Part shown: in pieces, positions 223 through 31,641 of the stretch | Position numbering within the stretch: position 1 is the first letter of the stretch | How the letters are laid out: each line of letters begins with the position of its first letter | Source: Opitutales bacterium | GTDB taxonomy: Bacteria > Verrucomicrobiota > Verrucomicrobiia > Opitutales > UBA2987 | Assembly: GCA_965226885.1 (NCBI GenBank) | Contig: CBDDEL010000016.1 | Coordinates: 704,001-768,000 of the forward strand | Reading direction: 5' to 3' | DNA: 64,000 nt | Translations under genes and position numbers: made by a program | The notes under the pieces: generated by a model | What the model was told of the DNA's origin: nothing | The model's database searches: none | What the model saw: the letters and a program-made list of their open reading frames with translations, nothing else

Positions 223-1798
223 CCCGGAAATTTCATAAAAAAAGTATCGCTGATATGCTTATCTGCTGATATACAGCAGGATAGATTAAACATTAAAGCA
301 ATATCAGCGATGACAAAAAGTAAACAATTAGAACTACAGTTGACAAGGGTAAAAGGCCGCCGTGTGCGGGTTGATTTTAAGGGCGGTGAGGTTACTTCGG
401 ATGCCGGGCTGCTTTTGATCCGGGAAGTGGATCGGCGGTTGGGCTTGACCGAGCAAGCGGCCCGGCAATTAGTAGACAAACGGCAGAAGGGCAAAGTGCG
501 CCATGAGATGCTGGCCATGATCCGGCAGCGCGTTTACGGGCTGGTGGCGGGCTATGAGGATTTGAACGACTTTGACACCCTGCGCCGCGATCCTTTGTTG
601 CAAACGGTAACGGGGCGCACTGAAGCGTTGGCCAGCGCGCCGACTTTGTGTCGTTTTGAAAACGGGCAGGATCGGCGGGCAGCCTTTGCCCTGAACGAGT
701 TGCTGGTCGAACAGTTCATCGGATCCTTTGCCGAGGAACCCGAAGAGATCATCCTGGACTTTGACGCCACCGACAATCCGGTGCACGGGCTCCAGGAGGG
801 ACGTTTTTTCCACGGTTATTATGATCATTACTGTTTTTTGCCGCTGTATGTTTTTTGCGGCGATCAGCTTCTGGTGGCCTACCTGCGGCCCAGCAAGATC
901 GATGCGAGCAAGCATGCCGGGGCCATCCTCAAATTGCTGGTTAAACGGATTCGCCAAAGCTGGCCCCATACGCGGATTATTTGGCGTGCCGACAGCGGAT
1001 TCTGCCGGGATCGGATTCTCTCGTGGTGCGAGCGCAACGAGGTTTATTTTATAGTGGGAACGGCCCGCCATGCACGCTTGCAGCAAGCGGCCCGGCAGTT
1101 GCAGGAGGCAAGCCAAACAATGGTTCGAGGGTAGCGGCAAAAAGCAACGGCTGTTTCAGCACTTCGAGTATGGGGCAAAATCGTGGCGGCGCCAACGCCT
1201 TATCATCCACAAAGCCGAACACACCGCACAGGGGTCCAACCCGCGCTTCGTGGTGACGAACCTGCAGGGCGATCCCCAAGAGCTTTACGACAAAGTATAC
1301 TGTGGCCGCGGTGAGATGGAGAACCGGATCAAGGAACAGATGCAATTGTTCAGCGAACGCACCAGCGCGCATAAATGGTGGGCCAACCAGTGGCGATTGC
1401 TCTTGTCGGGGCTGTCCTACACCTTGATGGAAGCCTTGCGCCGGTTCGCATTAAAAGGGACGAAGTGGGCGCGGCTCCAATGCCACAGTCTACGGCTAAA
1501 ATTAATCAAGATCGGAGCGGTCATCGTGCGCAACACCCGAACGATTCACTTTCATCTAAGTGAAAGTTATCCATGGGCGCCAGTCTTTTCAACCATGCGG
1601 CCCGCCGGTTGGTGCCAACCTAAAGGGCGCATTGGCGCTGCCCCCGGCGCTACCGAACCAATGGGGGAAAGGGGGAAGTGTCTCTACACCCTGAAAAACA
1701 CCTCAAAATCAAGACGATCCGCCCAAAATACAAAGAAATCCATCTCCATCTCCAATAGCAATAACGAGCCAAACTTTACCCTTCATGAAATATCCGGG
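223..1798 (+). mobile_element. IS1380-family element, copy 1 (frameshifted)
   Basis: Terminal IRs CCCGGAAATTTCAT / ATGAAATATCCGGG; CTAG target duplication at 219-222 and 1799-1802. Confidence 0.93.
310..1623 (+). pseudogene. IS1380 transposase, frameshifted
   Basis: TSDAGLLL, LDFDATD, HGYY and RADSGF motifs; +1 base near 1105 and +2 bases (GC) near 1577 relative to the intact copy at 3482-4792. Confidence 0.9.
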
Positions 1799-1802
1799 CT
1801 AG

Positions 1803-3100
1803 ATGCTGACCATGCCATCATGGCTGATTTTGCGGCATCAGCATCGGAGGCTGGAACACTCAACGGCTTGGATAGCGCGGAGTTCCTCCTCAAGAACGAT
1901 CACGACACTTCCCCAGTCGATGGCATCATTGACTTGGCCGACTTCGCGCAAACAGCCGGAGATGCCGGTACCCTCGACGGGCTTTCCAGGGCTGATTTTG
2001 CAAGGGACATACATACACATGCCGATGTGGACCTATCTGATAATGTGCCTCTTTTAAACGCCAACAACAACTTCATCAGCGCCAATACTTTCAGTGCGGG
2101 CAGCATGACGCTGGGCGGAGACCCGGCCTTCACATTACAACGGCCTGTTAATGCAAGCAACTCGCCGGGAACGAACTTTATCATACAAGGGCAGGATGCG
2201 GGTATCACGGAAGGTCCATTGAATGGGGGAGATATTGACTTAAATCCAGGAGCGGCGAGCAACAGTGGGGTTGACGGCTTAATCAACCTCAATGGCGATT
2301 CGAATGTTACTGGGGATTTGTCGGTGTCCGGCAGTATCACGGGAGACCTCACCGGCACAGCAGACAATGCTACTAGTACCGATTTTCTCGATGGGTTGGA
2401 CAGCTCAGAGTTCCTCCTCAAGAACGACCACGATACTTCTCCCACCGCCGGGCTCATCGACCAGGCCGAGTTCGCTTTCAGCGCCGCAAATGCCGATTTC
2501 GCCCTCGAAGCCGACCATGCCATCATGGTTGATTTTGCCGCATCGGCCTCGGAAGCGGGCACTCTCAATGGGTTGGACAGCTCAGAGTTCCTCCTCAAAA
2601 ACATTCACGATACTTCCCCCTCGGATGGGATCATCGATACGGCCGAGTTCGCATTCAGCGCCGATTTCGCCAGCCTTGCAACGGATGCTGATTTCGCCCT
2701 CGAAGCCGACCACGCCATCACGGCTGATTTTGCCGCATCGGCCTCGGAAGCGGGCACTCTCAATGGCTTGGATAGCAGCGAATTCCTCATTCGCGCCGAT
2801 GAAGATGTTTCCCCCGATAACGGCATCATTGACCGGGCTGATTTCGCCTTCAATGCCGATCATGCCACTAATGCTGATTTCCTCGGTGGCCTTGAAGCGA
2901 ACGATTTCCTGGACAAGACTACCTATGATAACGATGCCAACAGTGAGGTGGATGATTCCAGCCTCTCCGGCAATGTGGCCCTTTTGGATGAAAGCAATGA
3001 TTTTATCCAAGCCAATACATTCAGCGCGAGCACCATGACAGTTGGTGACGGGGCAAACCCTTTTAACCTTACACGGCCAACAAGTACCAGCGGAGATGGA
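1803..3100 (+). repeat. Intragenic coding repeats (~195 bp units plus a longer duplicated block)
   Basis: ADHAIxxDFAASASEAGTLNGLDSxEFL at ~1805, ~2510 and ~2705; NVxLL..N.F..ANTFSA.MT.G...F.L.RP at ~2040 and ~2970. Confidence 0.85.
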
Positions 3101-3312
3101 ACCAGCCTAGTTAGAGGCTGTCCCAAAAGGGTGATTTTTGCGAGGGCTTTTGATAGGCGCTCATTTTAGAGGTATTTGCATTTGGGAGAGTATCAACTTT
3201 GCTCTCCTATGACGTTAGGATACTGGTTTTGGGGTCCGGTTGCCTGGTTTTCTTTGTATGAGCCGACAGTACGGCTGTGAAAAAGTATTGTCCTTGCTTT
3301 TCCGCTCTCTAG

Positions 3313-4879
3313 CCCGGATATTTCATGAAGGGTAAAGTTTGGCTCGTTATTGCTATTGGAGATGGATTTCTTTGTATTTTGAGCAGATCGTCTTGATTTT
3401 TAGGTGTTTTTCAGGGTGTAGAGACACTGCCCCCTTTCCCCCATTGGTTCGGTAGTGCCGGGGGCAGCACCAATGCACCCTTTAGGTTGGCACCAATCGG
3501 CGGGCCGCATGGTTGAAAAGACTGGCCCAAGGATAACTCTCACTTAGGTGAAAGTGAATCGTTCGGGTGTTGCGCACGATGACCGCTCCGATCTTGATTA
3601 ATTTGAGCCGCAGGGTGTGGCATTGGGCCCGCGCCCACTTCGTCCCTTTTAAGGCTAACCGGCGCATGGCTTCCATCAAGGTGTAGGCCAGCGCCGACAA
3701 GAGCAATCGGCACTGATTGGCCCACCATTGATGGGCGCTGGTGCGCTCGCTGAACAATTGCATCTGTTCCTTGATGCGGTTCTCCATTTCACCGCGGCCA
3801 CAGTATACCTTGTCGTAAAGCTCCTGGGGATCGCCCGGCAGGTTCGTCACCACGAAGCGCGGGTTGGACCCCTGTGCGGTGTGTTCGGCTTTATGGATGA
3901 CCAACCGCAGCCATCGCCACGAATCGGCAGCATAGACGAAGTCCTGGAATAACCGTTGTTTTTCACCCCTTAGTTCGAACCATTCTTTGGCCTGCTTTTG
4001 CAACTGCTGGGCGTCTTGCTGCAAGCGTGCATTGCGAGCCATCCCCACGATGTAACTAACTTCGTTGCGGTCGCACCAAGAGAGTATCCGGTCTCGACAA
4101 AATCCACTGTCGGCGCGCCAAATAATCCGCGTACGGGGCCAGCTTTGGCGCATCCGTTTAACCAGCAATTTGAGGATGGCCCCGGCATGCTTGCTGGCAT
4201 CGATCTTGCTCGGCCGCAGGTAGGCCACCAGCAGCTGATCACCGCAAAAAACATATAGCGGCAGAAAACAGTAATGATCATAATAACCGTGGAAAAAACG
4301 TCCCTCCTGGAGCCCGTGCACCGGATTGTCGGTGGCGTCAAAGTCCAGGATGATCTCTTCGGGTTCCTCGGCAAAGGAGCCCATGAACTGTTCGACCAAC
4401 AGCTCGTTTACCGCAAAGGCCGCCCGCCGATCCTGCCCGTTTTCAAAACGACACAAAGTCGGCGCGCTGGCCAACGTTTCAATGCGCCCCGTTACCGTTT
4501 GCAACAATGGATCGTGGCGCAGGGTATCAAAGTCGTTCAAATCCTCATAGCCCGCCACCAGCCCGTAAACGCGCTGCCGCAGCATCCCCAATACCTCATG
4601 GCGTACTTTGCCCTTCTGCCGTTTGTCCACTAACTGTCGGGCCGCTCGTTCGGTCAAGCCCAACTGCCGATCCACTTCCCGGATCAAAAGCAGTCCGGCA
4701 TCCGAAGTAACCTCTCCGCCCTTGAAATCAACCCGCACACGGCGGCCTTTTACCCTTGTCAACTGTAGCTTTAATTGTTTACCTTTTGTCATCGCTGATA
4801 TTGCTTTAATTATTGATCTATCCTGCTGTATATCAGCAGTTAAGCATATCAACGATACTTTTTTTACGAAATATCCGGG
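3313..4879 (-). mobile_element. IS1380-family element, copy 2
   Basis: IRs CCCGGATATTTC / GAAATATCCGGG; CTAG duplication at 3309-3312 and 4880-4883. Confidence 0.95.
3482..4792 (-). CDS. IS1380-family transposase, intact
   Basis: 436 aa ORF with DDE motifs LDFDATD, RADSGF, RGEMENRIKE. Confidence 0.93.
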   Translation of the reverse strand: MTKGKQLKLQLTRVKGRRVRVDFKGGEVTSDAGLLLIREVDRQLGLTERAARQLVDKRQKGKVRHEVLGMLRQRVYGLVAGYEDLNDFDTLRHDPLLQTVTGRIETLASAPTLCRFENGQDRRAAFAVNELLVEQFMGSFAEEPEEIILDFDATDNPVHGLQEGRFFHGYYDHYCFLPLYVFCGDQLLVAYLRPSKIDASKHAGAILKLLVKRMRQSWPRTRIIWRADSGFCRDRILSWCDRNEVSYIVGMARNARLQQDAQQLQKQAKEWFELRGEKQRLFQDFVYAADSWRWLRLVIHKAEHTAQGSNPRFVVTNLPGDPQELYDKVYCGRGEMENRIKEQMQLFSERTSAHQWWANQCRLLLSALAYTLMEAMRRLALKGTKWARAQCHTLRLKLIKIGAVIVRNTRTIHFHLSESYPWASLFNHAARRLVPT

Positions 4880-6365
4880 CTAGGCCGCCGCTTTGGTTTT
4901 TAGTTCGTCTTGCTGGGCCAGCATCTTGGCTACTTTCCATAGGTTGTGCGAGAGTACCGACCAGGCTACGCTGATCGAGCGGTTGGCAAAGCCTTTGCTG
5001 CGCAACCGCCCGGCCTGCCAGCGATTCTTCAATACCCCGATCCGCCCTTCGGTGCTGGCCCGGCGCTTTTGCAATTGTCTGAACAGTGGTTCCTCCCTCC
5101 GTTTTTTCAACTGCTTCGGATCGCGTGGACAGAGCGCGTCGTAGATTCCCTCCTGGGCTAACTGCCGGCGGGCCCGCTGGGAGGCAAATCCCCGGTCCGC
5201 GCACATGGCCGCTATGGGTTCTTCCAGGTTGAAGCGGTTCTGTCTTTGCAAACTCTCTTGCATTTGTTCATTTTCGCTTGGAGTTCGGCTGCCGTAGAGT
5301 TTCCAGTCCAGCAGGTACCCTTCAACGCTTTCTCCCAAAAACAGGGTGTTGCCGAACTCGACCTCTTGGCCCGCTTTACCTCGCACAATCACCTGCCCAT
5401 CGAGTTCGTAAACACTCAAGACTTTCTCTGCGTTTTTCACCTGCCGGCCGCCAATGATCCGCTCGTGCGCCTGTTTGATGACCACCGGGATTTGCTCGCT
5501 CATGCGCTCCATCCGGGCGAGGATCTGTTGGACCTGTTTTTCGCTGTAATCGCTTTGCTCCCAGCAGGCTTGCAATAATTCCCGGTGACTGCGGGCATGC
5601 TCCCCGATCCGTTTGAGCAGCTTTTTCATCTGCCTCAAGATACCCTTGCGCTGCCGCGCGCTGTCCTTTCGCCGCCGGCTGTGGGTCATCTGTATGCACA
5701 GCCGATTCATCTGCCGAGCCAAGGGCTCCGGTTCGATCGGCATGCGATGGCGCAAACCGGCCTTCTCGCGGATCAGCCGGATCGCTTTGAGCAACGTGCC
5801 GGCTACATCCTTGAGTAATACCCAGTCCGTCGGCCAATGAATGTTAGCCTCCAAACAGGTGCCGTCGATCAGGCAAATGGTGGTGTCAATCGGCTTGTCC
5901 AATCCCACCTGCCGGGCCAGAAGGGCATCGCCCACCACCTCAGTCAAGGTCCGGTGCAAGGCCCTCAACTGCTCTTCGCTGAAAAACTTCGAGGCCCGCT
6001 CCAGGGTGCTTTTGGAGATGCCCCTGATGCCATCGATCTGCCGGACACGGCAAAAGTCGGCCAACAGATCGCTGCTGCCCAGAGCCCGCGACAAATGCCG
6101 AAACGAAATCCCTCCGAGCAGACGGCCCAGCGTATCCATGCGCAGTGCCTTGATGGCAAAACTGGCCCGCTGCCGCCGGGCCTTTAGACCCATTGGCGGC
6201 CACCCCTCCAAGGCCAGCTCAATGGCCTGCGATTCCACCTCCGAGTCGATCAGCAGCCGATCGATTCGATCAATGGTGGCGCGGAAGTTATCGTAATCGA
6301 GGCACCCACCGGTCGACCACAGTTAAAGCTGGACGCAGGAGGCATTGGATGGCTATATTTTTCAT
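4880..6365 (-). pseudogene. IS5/ISNCY-like DDE transposase, frameshifted by 4-bp duplication
   Basis: IDGTCLEANIHWPTD and RGKAGQEVEFG motifs; 1486 bp versus 1482 bp intact; CACC doubled at 6303-6310. Confidence 0.9.
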
Positions 6366-6513
6366 AGAAAGGGCTAAAGGGCTATATTGATTTTCGCTAA
6401 CTCAATTATAGAACCCTTTTTTGGCCGGATCGAGCAAAAACTTGCTCTTTCCGGCTCTTTTTATCAACGTCATCCAGTTGACTATAAAATCTTTATATTT
6501 TTGGGACAGCCTC

Positions 6514-7206
6514 TAATATAGAGATGCGGCACCTCACAGTAGAAAACACTGGAGGGAAAGTCGCTATCGAGATTAACAATTCCAATGTTACAGTGTTCGA
6601 TGTCAATGCCTCATCCACCAATGGAACCGGCACCGATAATACCGCCATAAAAATACATGGCGGAGGCACCTCCGTAAGCACCTCCTTGTGCAAGGTTACT
6701 GCCTATGCCTATGGCTCGACACCCATAGGAATAGAATTTGATGACAACCTGGGGAAAATATTGGATTCGGATGTCACTGCGTTTGCCGGGAACGGTGGGG
6801 GCGGCGACACCGAAGCTATCGGGATTTTGATGAACGATTCCGCTACCACTCCCACCGGAGGCGGCAGCGCAACACTCACCAATGTGGATATAAACGCTAT
6901 CGGCGGAACCCTCTCCAGTGTGGGTTTGAGACTGGATGATCTCTCTTCAGTTATTTTTAAGGATGGCACAGCGTTTGGAGACGACTTCGGATTGAATTAA
7001 TTTCCGCCTCCGGGACGAACATCACTATTATCAACAGCCAAATTACGGGTGGTTTCGAATCCCTCAGCCACAACGATGAAATAGTCAACGTGGTCCACTC
7101 GCAGTTGTCACCCCCTGCTAATTTGTTTACTGGACATCAAGTTACACAAACAAGTTGCTACGACGATCTGTTCTTGCCCCTGCCAGATGAAGGGGAGCCT
7201 TTTTAG
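6514..7206 (+). pseudogene. 3' fragment of a beta-helix-like surface protein, frameshifted near 7000
   Basis: NIEMRHLTVENTGG..AI begins directly at the IS end; after TAA at 6998-7000 similar sequence (ISASGTNITIINSQITGG...) continues in another frame to TAG 7206. Confidence 0.65.
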
Positions 7207-7226
7207 AAAGCATATCAATATACTTA

Positions 7227-8174
7227 TCACCGCTGCCGGGCAGTCCAGTGGCGGAGGGAGGCGAGGAGGAAGAATTCGAGGGCTACGCCGTCGGAGAGGT
7301 TGATTTCAACCAGCCCGGCGACACGTTCGAGGCTTGCTACGGCCCCGGCCAGCGCTGGGTAGGGAAGGTCTTGGCCCGCTTCCATTTTTTGGGCGAAAAA
7401 TGCCCGGGTGTGAACTTCGATTTCCCGGAAGAGCCGCTGGCGGACGCCTTTAGCCAGGCCCGTTTTGGAGGCATCGATCTCTTCATCGCTTATTCCAACC
7501 GGCAGCCTTTCTTTTTCATCACTCCAGGCGGCATCGGCGAGAGTTTTTTGCAGGTTGAGAAAACGGGTCAGGAGACCGTAGATGGCCAGCACCATATCGG
7601 CTTTGTCCCTGCTGCCGGAGGGTCCGGCCAGCAAGCTGTCGAGCCATTTTTTGTAATCGTGCAGCCAGTTCGCCCATTCCGCCCCAGCCAACGATTCCAC
7701 CTCGACCGGCAGTCGGAAGCTGAAGGTCCTGCTGCGAATGGTTTCGAGGAGGTTGTAAGGACGGGTGGTGAGGAGCAGGATGTTGGTGTCGGCGGGCGGT
7801 TCCTCGAGGGTTTTCAAAAAGGCGTTGGCCGAGGCAGTGTTCATGCGGTCGGCCTCATAAACGAGGGCCACTTTTCGGCTCCCTTGGCTCGGGGTGTGAT
7901 GGATGGCCCGGATCAGCTCGCGAGTGACGTCGATGCGGATGCGGCGCGCTTTGCGGGAGGGGCGCAAGGTAAACAAATCGGGATGCCCGGAGGCTTTTCC
8001 CGGCGCTCCCAGCAAAACCCCGGCCAGGGCCAGGGCGACTTCCTCCAAAGTGGCCAGGCTTCTGCCGTGCAGGAGAATACCGTGGGCGAGGCGGTTTTTA
8101 TCGAGGGATCTCTGAAGAATTTTTACCGGCCGGCAGGAGCGCAGCGGCTCATCCAATTCGCTGAGTAAGTTCAT
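7227..8174 (-). CDS. holB: DNA polymerase III delta' subunit
   Basis: HPD, ADRMNTASANAFLKTLEEPP and TIRSR motifs; directly downstream of tmk. Confidence 0.9.
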   Translation of the reverse strand: MNLLSELDEPLRSCRPVKILQRSLDKNRLAHGILLHGRSLATLEEVALALAGVLLGAPGKASGHPDLFTLRPSRKARRIRIDVTRELIRAIHHTPSQGSRKVALVYEADRMNTASANAFLKTLEEPPADTNILLLTTRPYNLLETIRSRTFSFRLPVEVESLAGAEWANWLHDYKKWLDSLLAGPSGSRDKADMVLAIYGLLTRFLNLQKTLADAAWSDEKERLPVGISDEEIDASKTGLAKGVRQRLFREIEVHTRAFFAQKMEAGQDLPYPALAGAVASLERVAGLVEINLSDGVALEFFLLASLRHWTARQR

Positions 8175-19961: not shown

Positions 19962-21466
19962 CTAGGCCGCCGCTTTGGTTTTTAGTTCGTCTTGCTGGGC
20001 CAGCATCTTGGCTACTTTCCATAGGTTGTGCGAGAGTACCGACCAGGCTACGCTGATCGAGCGGTTGGCAAAGCCTTTGCTGCGCAACCGCCCGGCCTGC
20101 CAGCGATTCTTCAATACCCCGATCCGCCCTTCGGTGCTGGCCCGGCGCTTTTGCAATTGTCTGAACAGTGGTTCCTCCCTCCGTTTTTTCAACTGCTTCG
20201 GATCGCGTGGACAGAGCGCGTCGTAGATTCCCTCCTGGGCTAACTGCCGGCGGGCCCGCTGGGAGGCAAATCCCCGGTCCGCGCACATGGCCGCTATGGG
20301 TTCTTCCAGGTTGAAGCGGTTCTGTCTTTGCAAACTCTCTAGCATTTGTTCATTTTCGCTTGGAGTTCGGCTGCCGTAGAGTTTCCAGTCCAGCAGGTAC
20401 CCTTCAACGCTTTCTCCCAAAAACAGGGTGTTGCCGAACTCGACCTCTTGGCCCGCTTTACCTCGCACAATCACCTGCCCATCGAGTTCGTAAACACTCA
20501 AGACTTTCTCTGCGTTTTTCACCTGGCGGCCGCCAATGATCCGCTCGTGCGCCTGTTTGATGACCACCGGGATTTGCTCGCTCATGCGCTCCATCCGGGC
20601 GAGGATCTGTTGGACCTGTTTTTCGCTGTAATCGCTTTGCTCCCAGCAGGCTTGCAATAATTCCCGGTGACTGCGGGCATGCTCCCCGATCCGTTTGAGC
20701 AGCTTTTTCATCTGCCTCAAGATACCCTTGCGCTGCCGCGCGCTGTCCTTTCGCCGCCGGCTGTGGGTCATCTGTATGCACAGCCGATTCATCTGCCGAG
20801 CCAAGGGCTCCGGTTCGATCGGCATGCGATGGCGCAAACCGGCCTTCTCGCGGATCAGCCGGATCGCTTTGAGCAACGTGCCGGCTACATCCTTGAGTAA
20901 TACCCAGTCCGTCGGCCAATGAATGTTAGCCTCCAAACAGGTGCCGTCGATCAGGCAAATGGTGGTGTCAATCGGCTTGTCCAATCCCACCTGCCGGGCC
21001 AGAAGGGCATCGCCCACCACCTCAGTCAAGGTCCGGTGCAAGGCCCTCAACTGCTCTTCGCTGAAAAACTTCGAGGCCCGCTCCAGGGTGCTTTTGGAGA
21101 TGCCCCTGATGCCATCGATCTGCCGGACACGGCAAAAGTCGGCCAACAGATCGCTGCTGCCCAGAGCCCGCGACAAATGCCGAAACGAAATCCCTCCGAG
21201 CAGACGGCCCAGCGTATCCATGCGCAGTGCCTTGATGGCAAAACTGGCCCGCTGCCGCCGGGCCTTTAGACCCATTGGCGGCCACCCCTCCAAGGCCAGC
21301 TCAATGGCCTGCGATTCCACCTCCGAGTCGATCAGCAGCCGATCGATTCGATCAATGGTGGCCGATCGATTCGATCAATGGTGGCGCGGAAGTTATCGTA
21401 ATCGAGGCTCCGGTCGACCACAGTTAAAGCTGGACGCAGGAGGCATTGGATGGCTATATTTTTCAT
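19962..21466 (-). pseudogene. IS5/ISNCY-like transposase, frameshifted by 23-bp duplication
   Basis: 1505 bp versus 1482 bp; CGATCGATTCGATCAATGGTGGC doubled at 21340-21385. Confidence 0.9.
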
Positions 21467-21514: not shown

Positions 21515-22316
21515 GGTAGTGTATTAAGTAGGAATGGTGGCTAATTCTTGATTATATTGATGAATGAAAAGTCTCAGACAGGTTTCATGCATACTCTTAA
21601 GCTTGGAAAAGGAGAGGGTTTTGCGTGTGAAACGACCCAGTCGTTGGCGCAGGGTATTGTTCCATCGTTCCACATGGGCCGTTTCACCGGTTTCTTTTCC
21701 CACGGATCGGTTATGAGGAAAGACTTCATCATAAGTGCTCCAAAAGTCGCTGTAGGTGGCACATCTTTTGTAGGCCCGTGGCAGACGCTCGTAAAGTTCC
21801 CGGCAACGATACCAATCCCGAGGCCCAATGGCATAGGAGAGGATTTGACGGGTGCGTCGGCAAAGAGCGATCCAAACCCATTGGGCATCGCTCTTGCGCC
21901 CCACAAAAGACCACAGTTCGTCCAGTTCAATGACATCATGGCGGCGGGCCGCAAGAATCGTGCTTTTGAGCGGTCGCAGCGATTGTCGTTTTTTTTAACC
22001 AACTCAAAACGGTGTTGGGACTCACCCCGAAGGCGCGCTGTAAACCGCGTAGACTGCTGCGTTCCTGATAGACTCGAAGGATCATTTCTTTTTGCTCTTC
22101 GGTGTATTTCACTGTGGGGTTTTCGCGGCTTTGTTTACCACAATCATGGCAGCGGTAGCGCTGTTTATGGTTGGGCGTCTTGCCAAATTTAATGATATTT
22201 TCACTTCCACAGTGCCGACAATTAATAATTTTAGCAACCATGCACTAAAAATAAACTGCCTAACGCTATTTGTACAGCTAAAAATACAAAATAACATTCT
22301 TTTTTTATACACTACC
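21515..22316 (-). mobile_element. IS1-family element, copy 2
   Basis: IRs GGTAGTGTAT; 8-bp TSD CCCTTTTT; insA 21936-22241, insB open to 21524. Confidence 0.95.
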
Positions 22317-22717
22317 CCCTTTTTTGGCCGGATCGAGCAAAAACTTGCTCTTTCCGGCTCTTTTTATCAACGTCATCCAGTTGACTATAAAATCTTTATA
22401 TTTTTGGGACAGCCTCTAGATAGTGGAAAGTATGGGGCTGCCGATGAAAAATCTCCGATTATGCCGGGGAAGGGAAATCATTTCACTTAAGGATTTTTAA
22501 ACTTTTCCCGAAAAAAGGAATGGATGAATGCCTGACAAAAAACTGGTTTGAAAAATAAGAATGCTCAACAAGACATTTTTTCGACAGAACTTTCTGTTTC
22601 TTATTGACAAGGCAATCCTTCCAAAGACTGTTGTTTCGGAATTTCCGAACCCAGGCATGGGCGGAAATTTTTAACAGTTTAGACAATTATAAAAATCCAG
22701 CTTTGTTGAAAAAGAAA

Positions 22718-23380
22718 ATGAGATCGGTTACCAGCGGCACATTATATTTTGACGGAATCATGCCCTGGCTGGCTGCTGTTGTGATTTTCTTGAGTTCTGC
22801 GGGATCGGCGTTCTCCCATGACATAGCCCGCGGCAAGGTGGTTTTTCAAATTTGCGTTGCCTGCCACGGCGATCAGGGTTTGGGAAACCGGGCGGTCAAA
22901 GCGCCTCATATCGCGGGACTCAATGCCTGGTATGTGGAGGCCCAGCTAACCAAGTTCCGTTCCGGCATTAGGGGAACCCATCCCGATGATATCGAGGGCA
23001 TGCAAATGCGCCCGATGTCCAAGACCATTGCCTCGGAAGAAGATGTCAGGGAAGTGGCCGCCTATATCGAACATCTCAAGCCCAACAAGGGAAAAACTAC
23101 GGTGCAAGGCAATGCCGATCGCGGAAAAACCCATTATATGGTATGTATGGCTTGTCATGGAGACAAGGGACAGGGAAATCAGGCCCTCGGTTCGCCGCCC
23201 CTCGTACGTTTGAACGATTGGTACATTTTGAGCCAGTTGAAAAAATTTCGCTCCGGCATCCATGGATCCAATCCGCTTGATATAACCGGCATGCAAATGC
23301 GGCCAATGGCCATGACTTTGCCCAACGAGCAGGCCATGCTGGATGTGATCGCCTATATCAATTCACTTTGGGAAAATTGA
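22718..23380 (+). CDS. Di-heme cytochrome c (c4-like)
   Basis: Signal peptide, CVACH and CMACH, two GMQMRPM distal-Met motifs; start codon uncertain. Confidence 0.9.
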   Translation: MRSVTSGTLYFDGIMPWLAAVVIFLSSAGSAFSHDIARGKVVFQICVACHGDQGLGNRAVKAPHIAGLNAWYVEAQLTKFRSGIRGTHPDDIEGMQMRPMSKTIASEEDVREVAAYIEHLKPNKGKTTVQGNADRGKTHYMVCMACHGDKGQGNQALGSPPLVRLNDWYILSQLKKFRSGIHGSNPLDITGMQMRPMAMTLPNEQAMLDVIAYINSLWEN

Positions 23381-23573: not shown

Positions 23574-24311
23574 ATGATTGAGAGTTTAATAGAAAACGCC
23601 TCCACTTACGGGGGGAAAATAGACGATCTATTTACCCTCGTAACCCTATTAATAGGCGGATGGTTCTTTTTGGCTGAGGGAATCCTCTTCTATTTTATCA
23701 TCCGGTTTCGGCGCAAGGACGGAGTGAAAGCCCAATACGTGACCGGGGAGAAGAGAGAAGAGCACAAATGGATAGCCTATCCGCACTACCTCATCATCCT
23801 CTTTGATATCGTCATAATCGTGGGCGCGGTGATGGTTTGGTACGAGGTTAAACAAAAGCTGCCCCCCGCCGACGCCACCATACGGGTGACTGGCAGGCAA
23901 TGGTCATGGATATTCACCCATCCCGGTCCGGACGGAATTCTCGACACAGGGGACGACATTAAAACTGTGGACAGCCTGCATGTGCAAGTAGACACCACTT
24001 ACCACTTTCTACTGGAATCGAAAGACGTCCTCCATAGTTTTTCAGTGCCGGTATTTCGGCTCAAACAGGACGCTATTCCGGGCAGGGTTATTACCGGATG
24101 GTTCAACGCGATCAAGACCGGAGAGTACGATATCCAATGCGCAGAGATATGCGGCATAGGCCATGGCATTATGGCCGCTCGCATCTCCATAGATTCGCCA
24201 AAGGATCACCAGGCTTGGATAAATGAAAAATCGCAACTGACTCAAACCGAGCGAATGGCTATGTCGGCCGAAAGTGAAATTTTAAACCGGGAGGATAAAA
24301 ACAATGGCTGA
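23574..24311 (+). CDS. coxB: Cytochrome c oxidase subunit II
   Basis: Two TM helices, DVLHSF and CAEICGIGHGIM CuA motif. Confidence 0.95.
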   Translation: MIESLIENASTYGGKIDDLFTLVTLLIGGWFFLAEGILFYFIIRFRRKDGVKAQYVTGEKREEHKWIAYPHYLIILFDIVIIVGAVMVWYEVKQKLPPADATIRVTGRQWSWIFTHPGPDGILDTGDDIKTVDSLHVQVDTTYHFLLESKDVLHSFSVPVFRLKQDAIPGRVITGWFNAIKTGEYDIQCAEICGIGHGIMAARISIDSPKDHQAWINEKSQLTQTERMAMSAESEILNREDKNNG

Positions 24312-26013
24312 GACCACCGTAGCCACAGAATTATCCCACGAAGTCCACGACCACCACGAGAAACCGGACTTCTGGAGCAAGTACATCTTTTCCACCGATC
24401 ACAAGATGATCGCCATGCAGTATATGTTCACGGGCATCGTGATGGCCTTGATCGGGGGCTATATGGCCTATGTTTTCCGCATGCAGCTGGCTTTCCCGGG
24501 AGAACCTGTGCCTGGCTTCGGCACGGTCACGCCTCTGAATTATAATGCGCTCATTACCAATCACGGCGCCATCATGATTTTCTGGGTGGCCATGCCGATA
24601 TTGATCGCCGCTCTGGGCAATTTTCTGATTCCCCTGATGATCGGGTGCGACGACATGGTATTCCCTCGGGTTAACCGGCTCTCCTACCAGATATTTCTGC
24701 TCAGCGTGGTCGTCTTGTTCGCTTCTTTTTTCGCCCCGGGGGGCGGCTTCGGGGGTGGCTGGACGGCCTACCCACCCCTCTCAGCCCAGTCGCAATACAG
24801 TTTAACGCCTTTCGGGGCGCCGCTCTGGCTGCTGGCCATAGCCCTGGAATTTGTGGCCTTCTTGCTGGGAGGGATCAATTTCATCACCACGACCATGAAC
24901 GCCCGGGCCAAGGGCATGAAGATGTACGACATCCCCATCATGGTATGGATGATCGTCATCGCCAGCCTCCTGTTTATGTTATCGGTCGGTCCTTTGATTG
25001 CCGGAGCCGTCATGCTCCTCTTCGACCAGATCCTGGGCACAACTTTCTATAACCCCGAAGGCGGCGGCGACCCGGTGCTCTGGCAGCACCTCTTCTGGTT
25101 TTTCGGGCATCCCGAGGTCTATGTGGTATTGCTGCCGGCCCTGGGGGCGGTGGCGGAGGTTATTTGCGTCTTTTCCCGCAAGAAGCTCTTCGCTTACAAA
25201 ACCATTCTCTATACCACCTTTGCCACCGGCATCCTGAGTTTTTTCGTTTGGGCCCACCATCAATTCATCGCCGGCATTGATCCCCGTATGGCCCATATTT
25301 TCACCGTCACCACGGTGCTAATCTCCATTCCCATTGCGGAAATGTTGTTTTGCTATATCGCCACGCTCTACGGGGGATCGATTGAACTGCGCACTCCCAT
25401 GCTTTTCGCGCTGGCTTTCCTAGTTGAATTCCTCATCGGCGGAGTGACCGGCATTTATCTGGGGTCGAGCGGGGTCGATATATACTTCCACGACACCTAC
25501 TTCGTGCTGGCCCATTTTCATTACACCTTTTTCCCCATTGCCATTATCGGATTCTTCACGGCCATCTATTACTGGTTTCCGAAGATGTTCGGCCGCATGA
25601 TGAACGAGACCTGGGGCAGGATACATTTCTGGGGTACCATAATACCCTTCAACTGCATCTTCCTGCCTCTTTTTGTCCTGGGCATGGCGGGCCAGCACCG
25701 GCGCATCTACAACTTTAACAACTTTCCCGACCTGGCCTCACAGGATATGCAAAATCTGCGCATTTTCGCCACCTGGTCGGCAGTGGTCATGCTGCTCTTT
25801 CAAATTCCCTTTTTAATTAATTTCACGGTTAGCATGTTCAAGGGGGAAAAAGCCGGCAAAAACCCCTGGAAAGCCAACACCCTGGAGTGGACGGCGCCCT
25901 CTCCTCCGCCCCACGGCAATTTCAAGGAACCGCCGGTGGTTTACCGAGGCCCCTACGAATACAGCGTGCCGGGGAGGGAAAAGGATTACTGGCCGCAAGA
26001 CGAACCCGTTTAG
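24304..26013 (+). CDS. coxA: Heme-copper oxidase subunit I (A1-like, K-channel substituted)
   Basis: NHG, FGHPEVY, WAHH, HDTY..AHFH and RR motifs. Confidence 0.95.
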   Translation: MAETTVATELSHEVHDHHEKPDFWSKYIFSTDHKMIAMQYMFTGIVMALIGGYMAYVFRMQLAFPGEPVPGFGTVTPLNYNALITNHGAIMIFWVAMPILIAALGNFLIPLMIGCDDMVFPRVNRLSYQIFLLSVVVLFASFFAPGGGFGGGWTAYPPLSAQSQYSLTPFGAPLWLLAIALEFVAFLLGGINFITTTMNARAKGMKMYDIPIMVWMIVIASLLFMLSVGPLIAGAVMLLFDQILGTTFYNPEGGGDPVLWQHLFWFFGHPEVYVVLLPALGAVAEVICVFSRKKLFAYKTILYTTFATGILSFFVWAHHQFIAGIDPRMAHIFTVTTVLISIPIAEMLFCYIATLYGGSIELRTPMLFALAFLVEFLIGGVTGIYLGSSGVDIYFHDTYFVLAHFHYTFFPIAIIGFFTAIYYWFPKMFGRMMNETWGRIHFWGTIIPFNCIFLPLFVLGMAGQHRRIYNFNNFPDLASQDMQNLRIFATWSAVVMLLFQIPFLINFTVSMFKGEKAGKNPWKANTLEWTAPSPPPHGNFKEPPVVYRGPYEYSVPGREKDYWPQDEPV

Positions 26014-26065: not shown

Positions 26066-26644
26066 ATGGCATTTACAGCACCAGCAGCCACGGCCAGAAG
26101 CGCCACTGAAATACCCACCGGACGACTTGGCGTTTGGTGGGTGGTGGTCTCTGAAATCGTCATTTTTGGGGGATTGGTTCTCTGTTATATCATGTTTCGC
26201 CTGCACCACGAGGAATGGGCCGAATATGCTTCCCACACCAGCACCGTGGCCGGGGCGTTCAACACCTTTGTTCTGCTCACCTCCAGCCTGTTCATTGTCC
26301 TGGCCCATCAGGCGGCGGAGGCCGGGGAACTGAAAAAAGCCTTTCGATTTATATGGTGCACAATTGGCGGAGGAGGAATATTTCTGGTTGTTAAATCGAT
26401 CGAATGGACGAATGAAATTTCACACGGCTATACGATATTCGCCAATAATTTCTGGTCCTTTTATTATATCGTTACAGGCCTGCACGGCCTCCACGTTATT
26501 GGTGGAATGGTTATCATGGCCATCATCTCCATCGGGGTGAAAAAAGGGGAGCACCTTCCCCGGGTCGAGTATATCGGCATATACTGGCACTTCGTGGATA
26601 TCGTCTGGCTATTCCTCTTTCCTCTCTTCTATATCGCCAAATAA
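26066..26644 (+). CDS. coxC: Cytochrome c oxidase subunit III-like
   Basis: SE...F, NT.VLLTSS, TGLHGLHV, YWHFVD.VW. Confidence 0.92.
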   Translation: MAFTAPAATARSATEIPTGRLGVWWVVVSEIVIFGGLVLCYIMFRLHHEEWAEYASHTSTVAGAFNTFVLLTSSLFIVLAHQAAEAGELKKAFRFIWCTIGGGGIFLVVKSIEWTNEISHGYTIFANNFWSFYYIVTGLHGLHVIGGMVIMAIISIGVKKGEHLPRVEYIGIYWHFVDIVWLFLFPLFYIAK

Positions 26645-26680: not shown

Positions 26681-27025
26681 ATGAACGAAGAACACGCACA
26701 TCCAAATTATATCAAGATATGGGCCATCCTGACGTTTCTGCTTTTTGTCAGCATTGTCGGGCCCATGATCGGAATCCCGGCTTTGACCCTCATCACGGCA
26801 TTCGGCATCGCGTTGGTCAAAGCGGTCATGGTGGGGGCCTATTTCATGCACTTGAACATCGAAAAACGCTTTGTATGGTACATGTTGTTCACCGCGTTGC
26901 TTTTTCTGGGCTTATTCTTCTTCGGCGTTTCCCCCGATGTGATGAAATCCGACGGCACCAACTGGGTCAATCAAACAACGGCTGCCGTATCTGTCGAGGC
27001 GGGCGATGCCGGTTCGCATCACTAA
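26681..27025 (+). CDS. Cytochrome c oxidase subunit IV family protein
   Basis: Three TM helices, KA..V..YFMHL motif. Confidence 0.88.
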   Translation: MNEEHAHPNYIKIWAILTFLLFVSIVGPMIGIPALTLITAFGIALVKAVMVGAYFMHLNIEKRFVWYMLFTALLFLGLFFFGVSPDVMKSDGTNWVNQTTAAVSVEAGDAGSHH

Positions 27026-27114
27026 ACAGCAGGCAGTTGCCGGGGCGTTATTGCTTCTCGGTAAAAAAGTATAAGGATTGAAGATCGAGGGTTGGATTTT
27101 TGGAAACTGCAATA

Positions 27115-27696
27115 ATGAACAAATCCGTCAAAGAGCAAAGCTCTCAGGGGCCGTATTTACCTAATGGCGTGCTCGGCATGGTATGTTTTATAACCATGGA
27201 AATCATGTTTTTCGCCGCCCTCATCAGCGCTTACATGATTGTAAAGTCCGGCATGTTGTTCTGGCCTCCGCCGGATCAGCCGCGTTTGCCGGTGGCAGCG
27301 ACGGCTATTAATTCTTTAGTGCTTCTGGCCAGCGGCTGGCTGCTTTTCAAAGCGGAGCGCTCCTTTCGACAAAATAAGAATGGTGAAGCCGCCTACCGAC
27401 TTTTTCGCCTTTCCATTTATCTGGGAACTTTTTTTGTACTTTTCCAGGGTTTTGAATGGATCCGTCTAATCGGATTCGGGCTGACTATGACCTCAAGCAC
27501 CTACGGGGGCTTTTTCTACCTCATAATCGGCACCCATGCTTCCCACGCGGTAACCGCTTTAATTGTTATGGTTCTAATGCTCAAGAAGATGAAAAAGAAC
27601 CAGCTCTCTACAGTAGAATTTTGGTGCACCCAGATATTCTGGCATTTTGTTGTTGGGGTTTGGCCGATTCTTTATATCCTGGTTTACCTGAATTAA
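27115..27696 (+). CDS. Second subunit III-like protein
   Basis: EIMFFAAL, GTHASHA, FWHFVVGVW. Confidence 0.88.
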   Translation: MNKSVKEQSSQGPYLPNGVLGMVCFITMEIMFFAALISAYMIVKSGMLFWPPPDQPRLPVAATAINSLVLLASGWLLFKAERSFRQNKNGEAAYRLFRLSIYLGTFFVLFQGFEWIRLIGFGLTMTSSTYGGFFYLIIGTHASHAVTALIVMVLMLKKMKKNQLSTVEFWCTQIFWHFVVGVWPILYILVYLN

Positions 27697-27712: not shown

Positions 27713-27952
27713 GTGAACTTAAACCGCAAAATAGCATCCCTTGTCCTTCTCCTGGCGGTATGGGCTCCGCAAGCCGCTCTGGCCTGCTCCGTCTGTTTTT
27801 CGGCCCGGGAGGAAACTCGGTTCGCATTTTACCAGACAACCGCTCTTTTAACTTTCCTCCCATTGTTATTGGTAGCGGCCTTTGTTTTCTGGATGCTCAG
27901 AAGGATGCGAAAATCGGATCGCCCGCTTGCCGAAAATCCTGCCCAGCCCTGA
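27713..27952 (+). CDS. Small exported CxxC membrane protein
   Basis: Signal peptide ending ALA, then CSVC, then a TM helix. Confidence 0.7.
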   Translation: MNLNRKIASLVLLLAVWAPQAALACSVCFSAREETRFAFYQTTALLTFLPLLLVAAFVFWMLRRMRKSDRPLAENPAQP

Positions 27953-29311: not shown

Positions 29312-31641
29312 TTATGGATTTGCGCTGAAATCCAGAAGTTGATCCAGGTTTGCCGGCTCGGCGAGAATCCCTGCCTTCAGCAATATGTTCTGGCTAGCTT
29401 TCCATTTATCGGCGCGCATGATGGCCAGGGGCGGCAGCCCATCGGGACTGACCAATTCGGCGATCCGGCGCAAGGAGGCGGTCTGGTATTCCCGATCCAG
29501 ATGAGGAGAATATTCCGCAATCACCAGATCGGCCGTTTCCTCCACATGATCGATGAAATGGACGGGGAAAACTGGACAGTGGAATAAGGTGGTCTTGAAC
29601 CACTAAATCCGCTAACCTATGAATGTTATTAAATCACGAAAGAGAAGACAATACAGTGCTGAGTTTAAAGCCCGAGTGGCCCTGGAAGCCATCAGGGGCG
29701 CTCATACCATCAACGAGATCGCCGGTCGTTTTGAGGTGCATCCCAACCAGGTGACCCAATGGAAGAAGCAGCTTTTGCAGGGAGCAACGGAGCTGTTTTC
29801 GCGCCAGCGGCAGACTCTCAGCAAGGACAACGAGACGGAAAAAGATCACCTTTACCAGGAGATTGGAAAGCTGAAAGTAGAATGCGATTGGCTAAAAAAA
29901 AAGTCTGAACAATTCGGTTGGTGAGAGGCGCAAGATGGTGCAACCACTTCAAGGAAAAATCAGTATCGGCAGGCAATGTCAGTTGCTGGGGCTGGCCCGC
30001 GGCAGCTATTACTATCGGGCCCGTGCCCAGTGCGAGCAGAACGTTCTCTACATGCATCGCATGGATGAGCTCTACACCCAATATCCGTTTTTTGGTTCTC
30101 GCCGGATGACCCAGTGGCTGCGTCGAGAGGGCCATGCAGTGGGACGAGGCCGCATCCAGCGGCTCATGCGCCAAATGGGCCTGGAGGCTATTTATCCGCG
30201 TCGAAACTTGAGCCAGGGGCACCGGCAGCACCGCATTTTCCCTTATCTGCTGCGGGGTTTGGCGGTCGAGCGGCCCGACCAGGTATGGTGCAGCGACATC
30301 ACTTACCTGCGGCTGAGCCGAGGATTCCTTTTCTTGACCGTGGTGTTGGACTGGTTCAGCCGCTACGTGTTGAGCTGGCAGCTTTCCAACACCCTGGAGA
30401 GCCGCTTCTGTGTGCTCGCCCTGGAGGAAGCTCTGAGGCGGGCCCAACCTCAAATCTTCAACACCGATCAAGGCAGCCAGTTTACCGGCAGCGAGTTCAC
30501 CTCGGTGCTGGGGCAAGCCGGGGTGCGCATCAGCATGGACGGGCGTGGCCGCTACCTGGACAACATATTTGTTGAACGCTTTTGGAGAACCCTCAAGTAT
30601 GAAGACATTTACCTGCGCGAATACGCCACGGCAAAGGAAGCCAGCGAAGGGATAGCCCGCTACCTGGACTTCTACAACCACCTGCGCCCCCACCAAGCCC
30701 TGGGCTACCGGACCCCGGCCGAAGTCCATGCAATCGGAGCAAAACCAACCTCCCCGCCAATACAGCTTGCGGGCACCTGCGTGCCCGTCTTTGGCTAAGG
30801 ACAAAATATATTTTTAAAAAATAATATGAACACGATTTCCACCTTAATCCCACGTCAAAATTGTCCAAACAACCCCGTCCACTTCACGAGGGCATATTTC
30901 CATCCTTCTCTGCTCGCCCGTAAAAATCTCTTAACCAAATCGTGGTTCTGTGCCATCATTTTTTCGGTTGTGAAAATGACCTGGGAATAGGCATGGTATC
31001 CGTAATCGCGGGCCAAAATGATCTTGCTGGTTCCACCCGTCAGCAATTGCAGGTGGACGAACTCGTCCATGTAATAGCACTGCATGAGATCGACTTTACC
31101 CTCGACTAAAATGGCGGGATCCCAGCCAATTTCAATGGTTTCAATATGATCGTGACTCAAGCCGGCTCCATTCAGAACCAAGTCCAGAGCGACGGCTTCG
31201 ATGGTGGCATGGATGCCAATCTTTTTACCTTTAAAATCGGCCGGCGACTGAATTGCAGCAGAATGCAAAGACATCCAGCCCAGAGGAGAATCCTGGAACA
31301 TGGCGGCGATGGCTTTAATACCGGATTCGGTCACGCCTGCTTGCAGCAGGAAGGAGCTTTCAATCACACCGAATATATAGTCGGCTTTCTCATTGAGAAC
31401 GATGTCAACCGGAGTTCGTCCCTCGATCAGCGCCCGGATTTCCACCTCCATGCCTGCATCGGCATAAAAACCATGTTCTACGGCTTGATACATTCCTGCA
31501 AACTGGACATTCGGCACCCAATCGAGCTGCAATACAATGGGAATAAGGGGTTTTTCGGCTATTTGGCATTTGGCTATAGGTGGGAATTATCAAACCTGCG
31601 ATTAGAAAAACGTATAGGACTGTCAGCTTGGTTTTTGTCAT
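29312..31641 (-). pseudogene. NMT1/THI5-type ABC substrate-binding protein, IS3-interrupted and frameshifted
   Basis: LQLDWVPNVQFAG motif; WKYAL|DHVEETA rejoins across the CGA TSD; 7-bp duplication at 31561-31574. Confidence 0.88.
29554..30886 (+). mobile_element. IS3-family element (orfA 29619-29924, orfB to 30798)
   Basis: TG...CA IRs (TGAAATGGACGGGG / CCCCGTCCACTTCA); 3-bp TSD CGA; WCSDITY, NTDQGSQF and ERFWRTLKYE integrase core. Confidence 0.95.

Follow-up and report, generated by a model that had tools for sequence, protein, structure and literature searches.

An A-family cytochrome c oxidase lineage without the K-channel lysine, with conserved candidate proton-carrying residues in subunits I and II

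RESULTS

Residues of the K and D channels in subunit I

The DNA stretch analyzed here, referred to as the window, comprises 64,000 nucleotides of the genome of an Opitutales bacterium (assembly GCA_965226885.1, contig CBDDEL010000016.1, positions 704,001 to 768,000), and our study focused on its coxI gene at 24304..26013 (+), with all positions counted within this 64-kb window. The gene encodes subunit I (CoxI) of an A-family heme-copper oxidase (HCO) and belongs to a seven-gene operon on the + strand (Table 1), in which the start of coxI overlaps the end of coxII by 8 bases. All seven open reading frames (ORFs) are open, in agreement with a preliminary description of this DNA that had regarded the operon as intact. 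Residues of CoxI were mapped by phmmer against all Protein Data Bank (PDB) chains onto subunit I of Rhodobacter sphaeroides (1M56_A; E 4e-123), and substitutions are given below in R. sphaeroides numbering. The alignment is gap-free from helix VI through helix IX. On helix VIII, I344, A345, E346, M347, and C350 correspond to T359, G360, I361, K362, and S365, respectively, and on helix VI, A284 and E285 correspond to S299 and H300. The formal alignment bears out what the preliminary description had aligned by hand, namely, T359>I, K362>M, S365>C, and S299>A with a new Glu at position 361, and it places no Lys or Thr at the K362 and T359 positions, which hold M347 and I344. The helix VIII coordinates given there, 25321-25356, are likewise right, the translation being ISIPIAEMLFCY.

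Many of the residues that characterize canonical enzymes are retained, including D117 (D132), N106 (N121), N124 (N139), N192 (N207), S127 (S142), Y40 (Y33), E271 (E286), and the cross-linked tyrosine Y273 (Y288). The His ligands H87, H269, H318, H319, H404, and H406 are invariant in an alignment of 42 sequences, so that the earlier statement that all six ligands and the cross-linked Tyr are kept agrees with both alignment and translation. The Mg ligands H396/D397, the arginines R466/R467, the CuA ligands, and the Mg-site Glu of CoxII are also retained. An AlphaFold2 (AF2) model of CoxI, with a predicted local distance difference test score (pLDDT) of 88.5, gave template modeling scores (TM-scores) of 0.84-0.93 to the aa3 oxidases of R. 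sphaeroides and Paracoccus denitrificans. The D-channel had been described as intact, which holds for D132, N121, N139, and E286 but not for the channel as a whole, since S197>E, S200>A, S201>F, and an altered entrance are found in 120/120 relatives.

Conservation and distribution of the family

The family CoxI set consisted of the 120 best matches in a collection of 5.8 billion proteins (73-100% identity), and it was compared with 65 representatives picked for the lysine motif, for which the presence of Lys in 65/65 holds by construction. At position K362, the 120 closest homologues carry Met (92), Leu (21), or Ile (7) and never Lys, indicating that the substitution is not due to chance. The three upper D-channel substitutions S197>E, S200>A, and S201>F each occur in 120/120 sequences, and the entrance changes P131>D, N140>R, and W144>Q are each 100% conserved; position 131 is Asp in 120/120 family members and Pro in 37/65 of the comparison set. 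Q320 is invariant (120/120; M335 in 63/65 of the comparison set), as is S341 (A356>S; 120/120), and V423>T and the change of "MP" to "QH" before R481/R482 are present in all family members. Greater variation was observed at position 284 (A in 114, G in 3, V in 2, I in 1), position 285 (E in 92, D in 28), position 308 (T in 108, L in 12; I323 in 65/65 of the comparison set), and position 346 (I361>E in 108/120, I in the other 12). The equivalents of T351 and S357 in P. denitrificans (Pd) numbering are I, V, or L and V, I, A, L, or C, respectively.

In a library clustered at 50% identity, the family comprised one full-length representative (P0121, 74% identity) and fragments, followed by P0122 at 65% and then by relatives at 47% or less. 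A scan of genomes, one per species, yielded at least 596 confirmed stretches, which places the family in several hundred species-level genomes; the best 80 of these at least 596 stretches were retained for locus counts, and 79 of the 80 lie at 69-82% CoxI identity. By record title, the hosts of these 80 loci include Opitutaceae, Puniceicoccaceae, Pelagicoccus, Myxococcota, Gemmatimonadota, Bdellovibrionota, Acidobacteriota, Nitrospinota, Eisenbacteria, Rokubacteria, SAR324, and others, and cultured strains among the titles include at least Pelagicoccus sp. SDUM812002 and Puniceicoccaceae bacterium K14. Identity is 70-93% across Verrucomicrobiota, Myxococcota, Gemmatimonadota, Bdellovibrionota, Acidobacteriota, Nitrospinota, and more. 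One member with 70% identity and a full cassette (L056, CAMASI010000044.1) is titled "MAG: Klebsiella pneumoniae", a label that is probably a binning or naming error.

In a FastTree phylogeny of 142 A-family representatives, the family CoxI was monophyletic with a support of 0.997, and many further clades without the lysine were observed. This homologue search and tree, which the preliminary description had proposed as a check, thus recovered a coherent family without Lys362. The family joins a clade marked by the motif ISIPSVIIL and a lysine-bearing clade with two COX3 genes with a Shimodaira-Hasegawa-like support of 0.98; a sister relationship between the family and the ISIPSVIIL clade is unsupported (support 0.01). 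Two outlying sequences were also noted. P0262 (504 amino acids, from the 50% library) groups with the family (support 1.0) on a very long branch, and in the alignment CuB ligands are missing, with Asn at H284 and Asn-Leu at H333/H334, as is the Tyr; it may be a degenerate, non-catalytic relative or may be misaligned. L082, on a 3379-base contig of an Actinomycetota metagenome-assembled genome, is a mosaic relative at 56% identity that carries the PIAEM motif, Thr323, and Gln335 together with a canonical D-channel (R-D-L-S-S) and a divergent CoxII (24% identity) without the His and Asp described below.

Subunit II and co-variation between subunits

HMMER alignment of CoxII with its R. sphaeroides counterpart placed E63, W66, and P70 at E101(II), W104, and P108, respectively. 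The preliminary description had pointed to unusual His and Asp residues in a subunit II helix 2 that reads PHYLIILFD, and the translation contains precisely this motif (Table 1). Among the 78 family CoxII sequences, the canonical channel-entry residue is variable (E63 is Glu in 25/78), His71 is present in 76/78, and the mid-membrane Asp78 is present in 77/78.

A scan of metagenomes provided graded relatives from 87% down to 40% identity, and both subunits were readable in 64 loci. In the 34 loci that bear K362, Asp78(II) was found in 0/34, the E101(II) equivalent in 33/34, and S197>E/D in 0/34; in the 30 loci without K362, the corresponding counts were 30/30, 7/30, and 30/30. The residues of the two subunits also vary together within the family. 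In the Puniceicoccaceae/Pelagicoccus subclade, E346 is replaced by Ile and T308 by Leu in CoxI, and CoxII carries Glu68, three residues before His71, in 5/5 loci (L006-L008, L115, L116); Glu68(II) occurs in just 2 other genome loci. At another locus (L071), E346, T308, and His71(II) are lost together. A carboxylate thus appears to swap between subunits I and II, as judged from these alignments.

Two further lysine-less clades were available for comparison. The first, at 53-58% identity and known from metagenomes (L138, L139, L147-L150, L152, L153, L155, L156), has Phe at T359, Ala at I323, and S197>E/D, and its CoxII helix 2 bears a second Asp four residues after D78 in the 7 CoxII sequences. 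The second is the ISIPSVIIL clade, at 46% identity, which occurs in two sister genera, alone in genomes G005 and G007 and beside a canonical enzyme in G006 and G008, and which has a buried Glu on CoxII helix 2 ("IVAE") in 4/4 genomes. The operon of this clade in G005 (L114; G005:C1:379500-393500, 843-7808 (-)) encodes CoxI, CoxIII, CoxIV, two small ORFs, CoxII, a 623-amino-acid protein, and a diheme cytochrome c; the 623-amino-acid protein resembles cytochrome bd subunit I (PF01654, E 4.7e-25) over the first half of that subunit alone.

Oxidase complement of the host genome and genus

Among 30 relatives examined, the enzyme was the only A-type oxidase in 5/5 genomes of the genus, the other four copies being 89-93% identical to it. 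Most genomes of the order carry a canonical lysine-bearing enzyme at 38-41% identity, and one genome (G020) carries both that enzyme and a member of the family. The genome of the window (96% complete) encodes heme A synthase, and family searches of the same genome found neither cytochrome bd nor cytochrome b. Its only other HCO is a very divergent cbb3-like enzyme on another contig. Heme A would be made for the A-type enzyme alone, which makes it very likely that the enzyme is in use, and the exclusive presence of this oxidase in the genus together with heme A synthase suggests that the CoxI locus almost certainly encodes a working cytochrome c:O2 oxidoreductase that uses heme A.

The cbb3-like enzyme (G000 contig C17, 84940-86208 and 89275-90243; L002, L084) has CcoO- and CcoP-like genes, its CcoN scores 163 bits against a cut-off of 583, and it lies about 3 kb from an NrfD/ActC-like gene that possibly belongs to an alternative complex III. 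A link between the cassette and alternative complex III was considered and rejected, as the cassette flanks are unrelated in eight loci and the NrfD/ActC-like gene stands beside the cbb3-like oxidase elsewhere.

The operon and its surroundings

The features of the operon are listed in Table 1. The conserved portion of the diheme cytochrome c begins near the ATG at 22718. Both catalytic subunits scored under the thresholds of their curated models, with CoxI at 589.5 bits against the NCBIfam CtaD_CoxA equivalog TIGR02891 (cut-off 670.75) and CoxII at 141.7 bits against TIGR02866 (cut-off 147.7). The CuA site of CoxII is complete, with IQCAEICGIGHGIM at 24132-24173, and the motif reads CAEICGIGHGIM in the CoxII translation. 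The 79-amino-acid protein at the end of the operon had no match in Pfam or NCBIfam; it carries a conserved A-C-x-x-C motif and may be a copper-handling or assembly factor.

Table 1. Genes and residue motifs of the oxidase operon in the window
Feature	Position	Strand	Basis
Diheme c-type cytochrome, probable electron donor to CuA	22604..23380	+	Pfam Cytochrom_C, 2 stretches, E 1.3e-25
CoxII (subunit II, 245 amino acids)	23574..24311	+	Pfam COX2, E 2.2e-17; alignment to 1M56_B
CoxII helix 2 motif PHYLIILFD with His71 and buried Asp78	23781..23807	+	Translation
CoxI (subunit I, 569 amino acids), A-family heme-copper oxidase	24304..26013	+	Pfam COX1, E 1.5e-133
Double Asp at the D-channel entrance, D116 D117 (P131>D, D132)	24649..24654	+	120/120 family members
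Helix IV EFVAF, upper D-channel: E182 (S197>E), A185 (S200>A), F186 (S201>F)	24847..24861	+	120/120
Helix VI, HPEVY (CuB His269, Glu271, cross-link Tyr273) to A284 E285 (S299>A, H300>E)	25108..25158	+	
Helix VII: T308 (I323>T), CuB ligands H318 and H319, Q320 (M335>Q)	25225..25263	+	
Helix VIII SIPIAEMLFCY: S341 (A356>S), I344 (T359>I), E346 (I361>E), M347 (K362>M), C350 (S365>C)	25324..25356	+	
Subunit III-like protein a (192 amino acids, five-helix type)	26066..26644	+	Pfam COX3, E 2e-16
Subunit IV (114 amino acids)	26681..27025	+	TIGR02229 caa3_sub_IV, 44.6 bits vs cut-off 37.25; COX4_pro match
Second subunit III-like protein b (198 amino acids)	27100..27696	+	Pfam COX3, E 3.4e-17
Small membrane protein (79 amino acids), conserved A-C-x-x-C after N-terminal hydrophobic stretch	27713..27952	+	

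In the best 80 genome loci, several of which sit on incomplete contigs, tblastn detected coxII in 78, coxIIIa in 74, coxIV in 74, and the small A-C-x-x-C gene in 48, and a homologue of the diheme cytochrome lies directly upstream of coxII in 71/80. The second subunit III gene, coxIIIb, was a separate reciprocal-best ORF in 64/80 loci, and 7 of its 74 tblastn matches were cross-matches on IIIa. A comparison of eight loci revealed that the cassette flanks are unrelated between loci. In the window, insertion sequences (IS) bracket the cassette and a neighboring amidohydrolase gene, with a DDE_Tnp_1 transposase and an IS1-type InsA/InsB pair upstream (19962-21320 (-), 21524-22241 (-)) and an IS3-type orfA/orfB (rve) pair downstream (29619-30798 (+)). 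The G+C content of the operon (0.503) is slightly under that of the genome (0.522). The conserved order of the cassette, its unrelated flanks, the neighboring IS elements, and the lower G+C content fit a mobile, strongly constrained module. In 1078 plasmid records, the best match was only 44.6% identical.

DISCUSSION

Our analysis describes a widespread, strongly conserved oxidase family in which K362, T359, and S299 of the K pathway in subunit I have given way to hydrophobic residues. The reading that we favor, with a confidence that sits near the midpoint of the scale, is that the enzyme works as a cytochrome c oxidase whose K pathway, at the interface of subunits I and II, has been reassembled from carboxylate, histidine, and hydroxyl residues, alongside a rewired D-channel. 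The canonical K pathway, which leads from E101 of subunit II through S299, K362, and T359 to Y288, has been dismantled, and the protons of the reductive half-cycle would instead travel to Tyr273 and the heme a3-CuB site along a replacement route in that part of the protein, where the two subunits meet. Helix II of subunit II is among the helices that surround the K-channel, which begins at a subunit II glutamate, as described in PMC6115622. The candidate residues lining the new pathway would be His71 and Asp78 on subunit II helix 2, Glu346 and Ser341 on helix VIII, and Thr308 on helix VII. Counting residues along the AF2 helices, which gives depth and not lateral distance, predicts an order from the cytoplasmic side of H71(II), then E346/T308, then D78(II)/S341, and then Y273; we infer the spatial closeness of these residues, as well as proton conduction and pumping, from sequence. 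The D-channel would be retained in a rewired form, with a double-Asp entrance and with Glu182 and Phe186 in place of the water-holding residues Ser197 and Ser201 below Glu271.

The suggestion of a rewired proton route, already made in the preliminary description, gains support from the family-wide conservation of the substitutions and from the co-occurring changes in CoxII (the buried Asp and His) and in the D-channel. A more specific version is tentative, and we would sooner expect it to fail than to hold: proton input may be wired in a third way, with the groups of the chemical-proton path coming largely from subunit II (Asp78, His71), a helix VIII Glu that can shift between the subunits in evolution, and a D-channel with two glutamates. 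If this were true, carboxylate and histidine input in place of the lysine could change how the reductive phase of an otherwise classical aa3 enzyme is gated, and perhaps also the H+/e- stoichiometry or pH dependence of the enzyme.

Several observations weigh against a rebuilt interface pathway. Lateral contact of H71 and D78 of CoxII with E346, T308, and S341 of CoxI is putative, and Glu346 is rotated on the helix by about 100 degrees relative to the K362 position. Glu346 is also absent from the 53-58% lysine-less clade (0/10) and from P0122, so lysine-less function does not generally depend on it. The exchange of glutamate between the subunits is one subclade and one odd locus, and the 2 other loci with Glu68(II) retain E346. 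Furthermore, the lysine-less clades are related, and the split of 30/30 versus 0/34 may reflect one or two ancestral changes; the co-variation may accordingly rest on few independent events.

The strongest alternative is that the enzyme is a D-channel-only oxidase in which the K-region is closed and the remodeled D-channel, with its double-Asp entrance and Glu182 relay, carries all chemical and pumped protons. The buried Asp and His of subunit II would in that case have a role in packing, assembly, or regulation, and the enzyme would mirror the B and C families, in which a K-type channel is the sole one. The changes that vary least across the family, D116, E182, A185, and F186 at 120/120 each, do lie in the D-channel, only hydrophobic residues stand at T359, K362, and S299, and the E101(II) equivalent has become variable. 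The tracking of S197>E/D with lysine loss fits this explanation and the rebuilt pathway equally well. However, a D-channel-only enzyme leaves unexplained why buried Asp, His, or Glu residues stand on subunit II helix 2 in all three lysine-less clades examined and why Glu346 of CoxI is exchanged for a Glu of CoxII, and a Phe in place of S201 would, if it had any effect, constrict the water chain beneath Glu271. In model enzymes, moreover, the D-channel is no substitute for the K pathway during reduction (PMC6115622). We consider this alternative doubtful, though it deserves to be taken seriously.

An altered chemistry or role, such as reduction of nitric oxide (NO) or another oxidant or slow, non-pumping O2 scavenging, had also been raised in the preliminary description. 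It could account for the changes near the active site in all members (M335>Q, V423>T, and "QH" before R481/R482) and for the missed CtaD equivalog cut-off, and NO reductases (NORs) have evolved repeatedly from oxygen reductases (PMC11214002). Nevertheless, the cross-linked Tyr and the three CuB His are invariant and the CuA site is kept, whereas NORs are described as being without the Tyr cofactor (PMC11214002), and the NOR motifs H-x-Arom-x-E and HH-x-Arom-Arom (-x17-E), as given in PMC3084760, are not found in CoxI, which reads HPEVY and HHQFI. With the invariant Tyr and CuB site and the absence of these motifs, altered chemistry is improbable; the D-channel, Mg-site, and propionate Arg residues typical of pumping enzymes are kept, and the enzyme is the sole A-type oxidase in its genus.

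A Na+-translocating variant, in which the buried carboxylates would bind an ion instead of relaying protons, is very improbable: buried Asp, Glu, and His are present and some hosts are marine by record title (Pelagicoccus, SAR324), but nothing more specific speaks for this or any other cation route, no known Na+-site motif turned up, record titles place the family just as often in soil and freshwater lineages, and the carboxylates appear from sequence spacing to be aligned along helix faces and not clustered. A decaying or non-functional paralogue, as might be suspected from the crippling effect of K362M-type changes on model enzymes (title of PDB 3OM3; PMC6115622) and from the IS elements that flank the locus, is effectively refuted by conservation, with seven intact ORFs, 70-93% identity across phyla with invariant ligands, sole occupancy of the A-type role in 5/5 genus genomes, and a retained heme A synthase.

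The family matters in that mechanistic work on A-type oxidases treats K362 as indispensable for reducing the active site, and its mutation drastically slows that reduction (PMC6115622); this lineage occurs in nature, is strongly conserved, and does without the residue. It offers testable candidate replacement residues in two subunits and, in the shift of a carboxylate from CoxI to CoxII, an experiment already carried out by nature, which could separate the chemically necessary features of the K pathway from the historical ones. It also indicates that automated "A1, D- and K-channel" labels on environmental oxidases can be wrong.

Comparison with known oxidases

Like the canonical A1-type aa3 oxidases of R. 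sphaeroides (1M56/2GSM) and P. denitrificans (1AR1/1QLE), to which it is 38-39% identical, CoxI has the same fold (TM 0.84-0.93) and retains the six His, the cross-link Tyr, GHPEVY with Glu286, D132/N121/N139/N207/S142/Y33, the Mg site, R481/R482, and a CuA-bearing subunit II. It differs from them in that K362, T359, and S299 are hydrophobic, in S197>E, S200>A, S201>F, P131>D, and M335>Q, in the variable E101(II) equivalent and the buried His and Asp on subunit II helix 2, and in having two five-helix subunit III-like proteins where the canonical enzymes have a single seven-helix subunit III. A-type HCOs are defined in PMC3084760 by the presence of both channels, with the D-channel consisting of Asp124, Asn199, Asn113, Asn131, Tyr35, Ser134, Ser193, and Glu278 and the K-channel of Lys354, Thr351, Ser291, and Tyr280 (Pd numbering). 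Seven of these eight D-channel residues are present, Ser193 (R. sphaeroides S201) being Phe, but only one of the four K-channel residues, the Tyr, is found, with M347, I344, and A284 at the other positions. The six His ligands and Tyr-I of helix VI place the enzyme among the O2-reducing members of the HCO superfamily, and the CuA subunit II, two COX3 matches, COX4_pro, and aa3-like fold are features of A-type enzymes.

The gene content resembles the cassette of "Subtype a-III (2 COX3)", which has two COX3 genes and a K-channel marked "yes" in Table S1 of PMC8239418, and the coxMNOP-like cassette of a Ralstonia wenshanensis plasmid (CP076412), with CoxII, CoxI, two III-like genes, and subunit IV. 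Both resemblances are partial. Two COX3-like genes are present in our operon and the K-channel is absent, whereas the Ralstonia enzyme, 44% identical to the family CoxI, keeps the lysine (IPTALKVYNW) and S299, for which reason identity with coxMNOP was rejected; its cassette also differs in gene order and is without the upstream diheme cytochrome c and the small CxxC gene. The a-III-like representative in our tree, P0127, is 49% identical to the Ralstonia protein.

Among enzymes outside the canonical pattern, a rus-operon oxidase is reported to have been purified in active form. Oxidases of this operon in acidophilic iron oxidizers are listed as "modified" in PMC8239418, where lysine-less family A subclades are already cataloged as "KC", "hybrid", or "modified" (Degli Esposti et al. 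2021, Tables S1, S3). The "KC channel" designates lysine-less A1 COX1 of Elusimicrobia, Ca. Calescamantes, and Methylacidiphilaceae (PMC8239418), and our family is like this class in that it is an A1 enzyme, contains HPEVY, and lacks Lys at K354 (Pd). Unlike it, the family reads Y-A-M-I-C-E, has no Ser or Thr at T351, and adds Glu346, Thr308, and S197E/S201F; the columns of Table S3 marked "both" for "KC" call for Ser at T351 and Asn or Ser at S357, next to four CcoN-type positions that also define the class, and the family has the called-for residue neither at T351 nor at S357. The Elusimicrobia rows of PMC8239418 (Y-A/S-I-S-C-E) match the "ISIPSVIIL..C" clade of the sister genera and not the family itself. 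On these alignments, the enzyme would be called "modified" in that scheme. The preliminary description had left room for membership in an already characterized subfamily. This proved right to the extent that lysine-less A-family lineages are known as a class from sequence catalogs, which limits the surprise, but the pattern Y-A-M-I-C-E is absent from the rows of Table S3 (PMC8239418), whose companion Supplementary Fig. S7 and data sheets fall outside this comparison and may show the family, and our literature search turned up no biochemical study of it. Within the literature covered here, what appears to be undescribed is the widespread family itself, the subunit II Asp and His, the exchange of Glu between subunits, and the Glu/Phe D-channel.

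B-type HCOs lack a D-channel and have an alternative K-channel with Thr, Ser, and Tyr replacing K354, T351, and S291 (PMC3084760), and sNOR has a conserved Glu elsewhere in the K-region (PMC11214002). The family enzyme differs from the B family in that it belongs to the A family by sequence and fold and keeps the D-channel with its Asp, Asn, and Glu residues, and in that the K354/T351/S291 positions read M, I, and A, without the B-type Thr, Ser, and Tyr. Nonetheless, the B-family (ba3-type) enzymes and sNOR are working precedents for a proton path through the K-region without the lysine, and the ba3 channel is opened by a Glu of subunit II.

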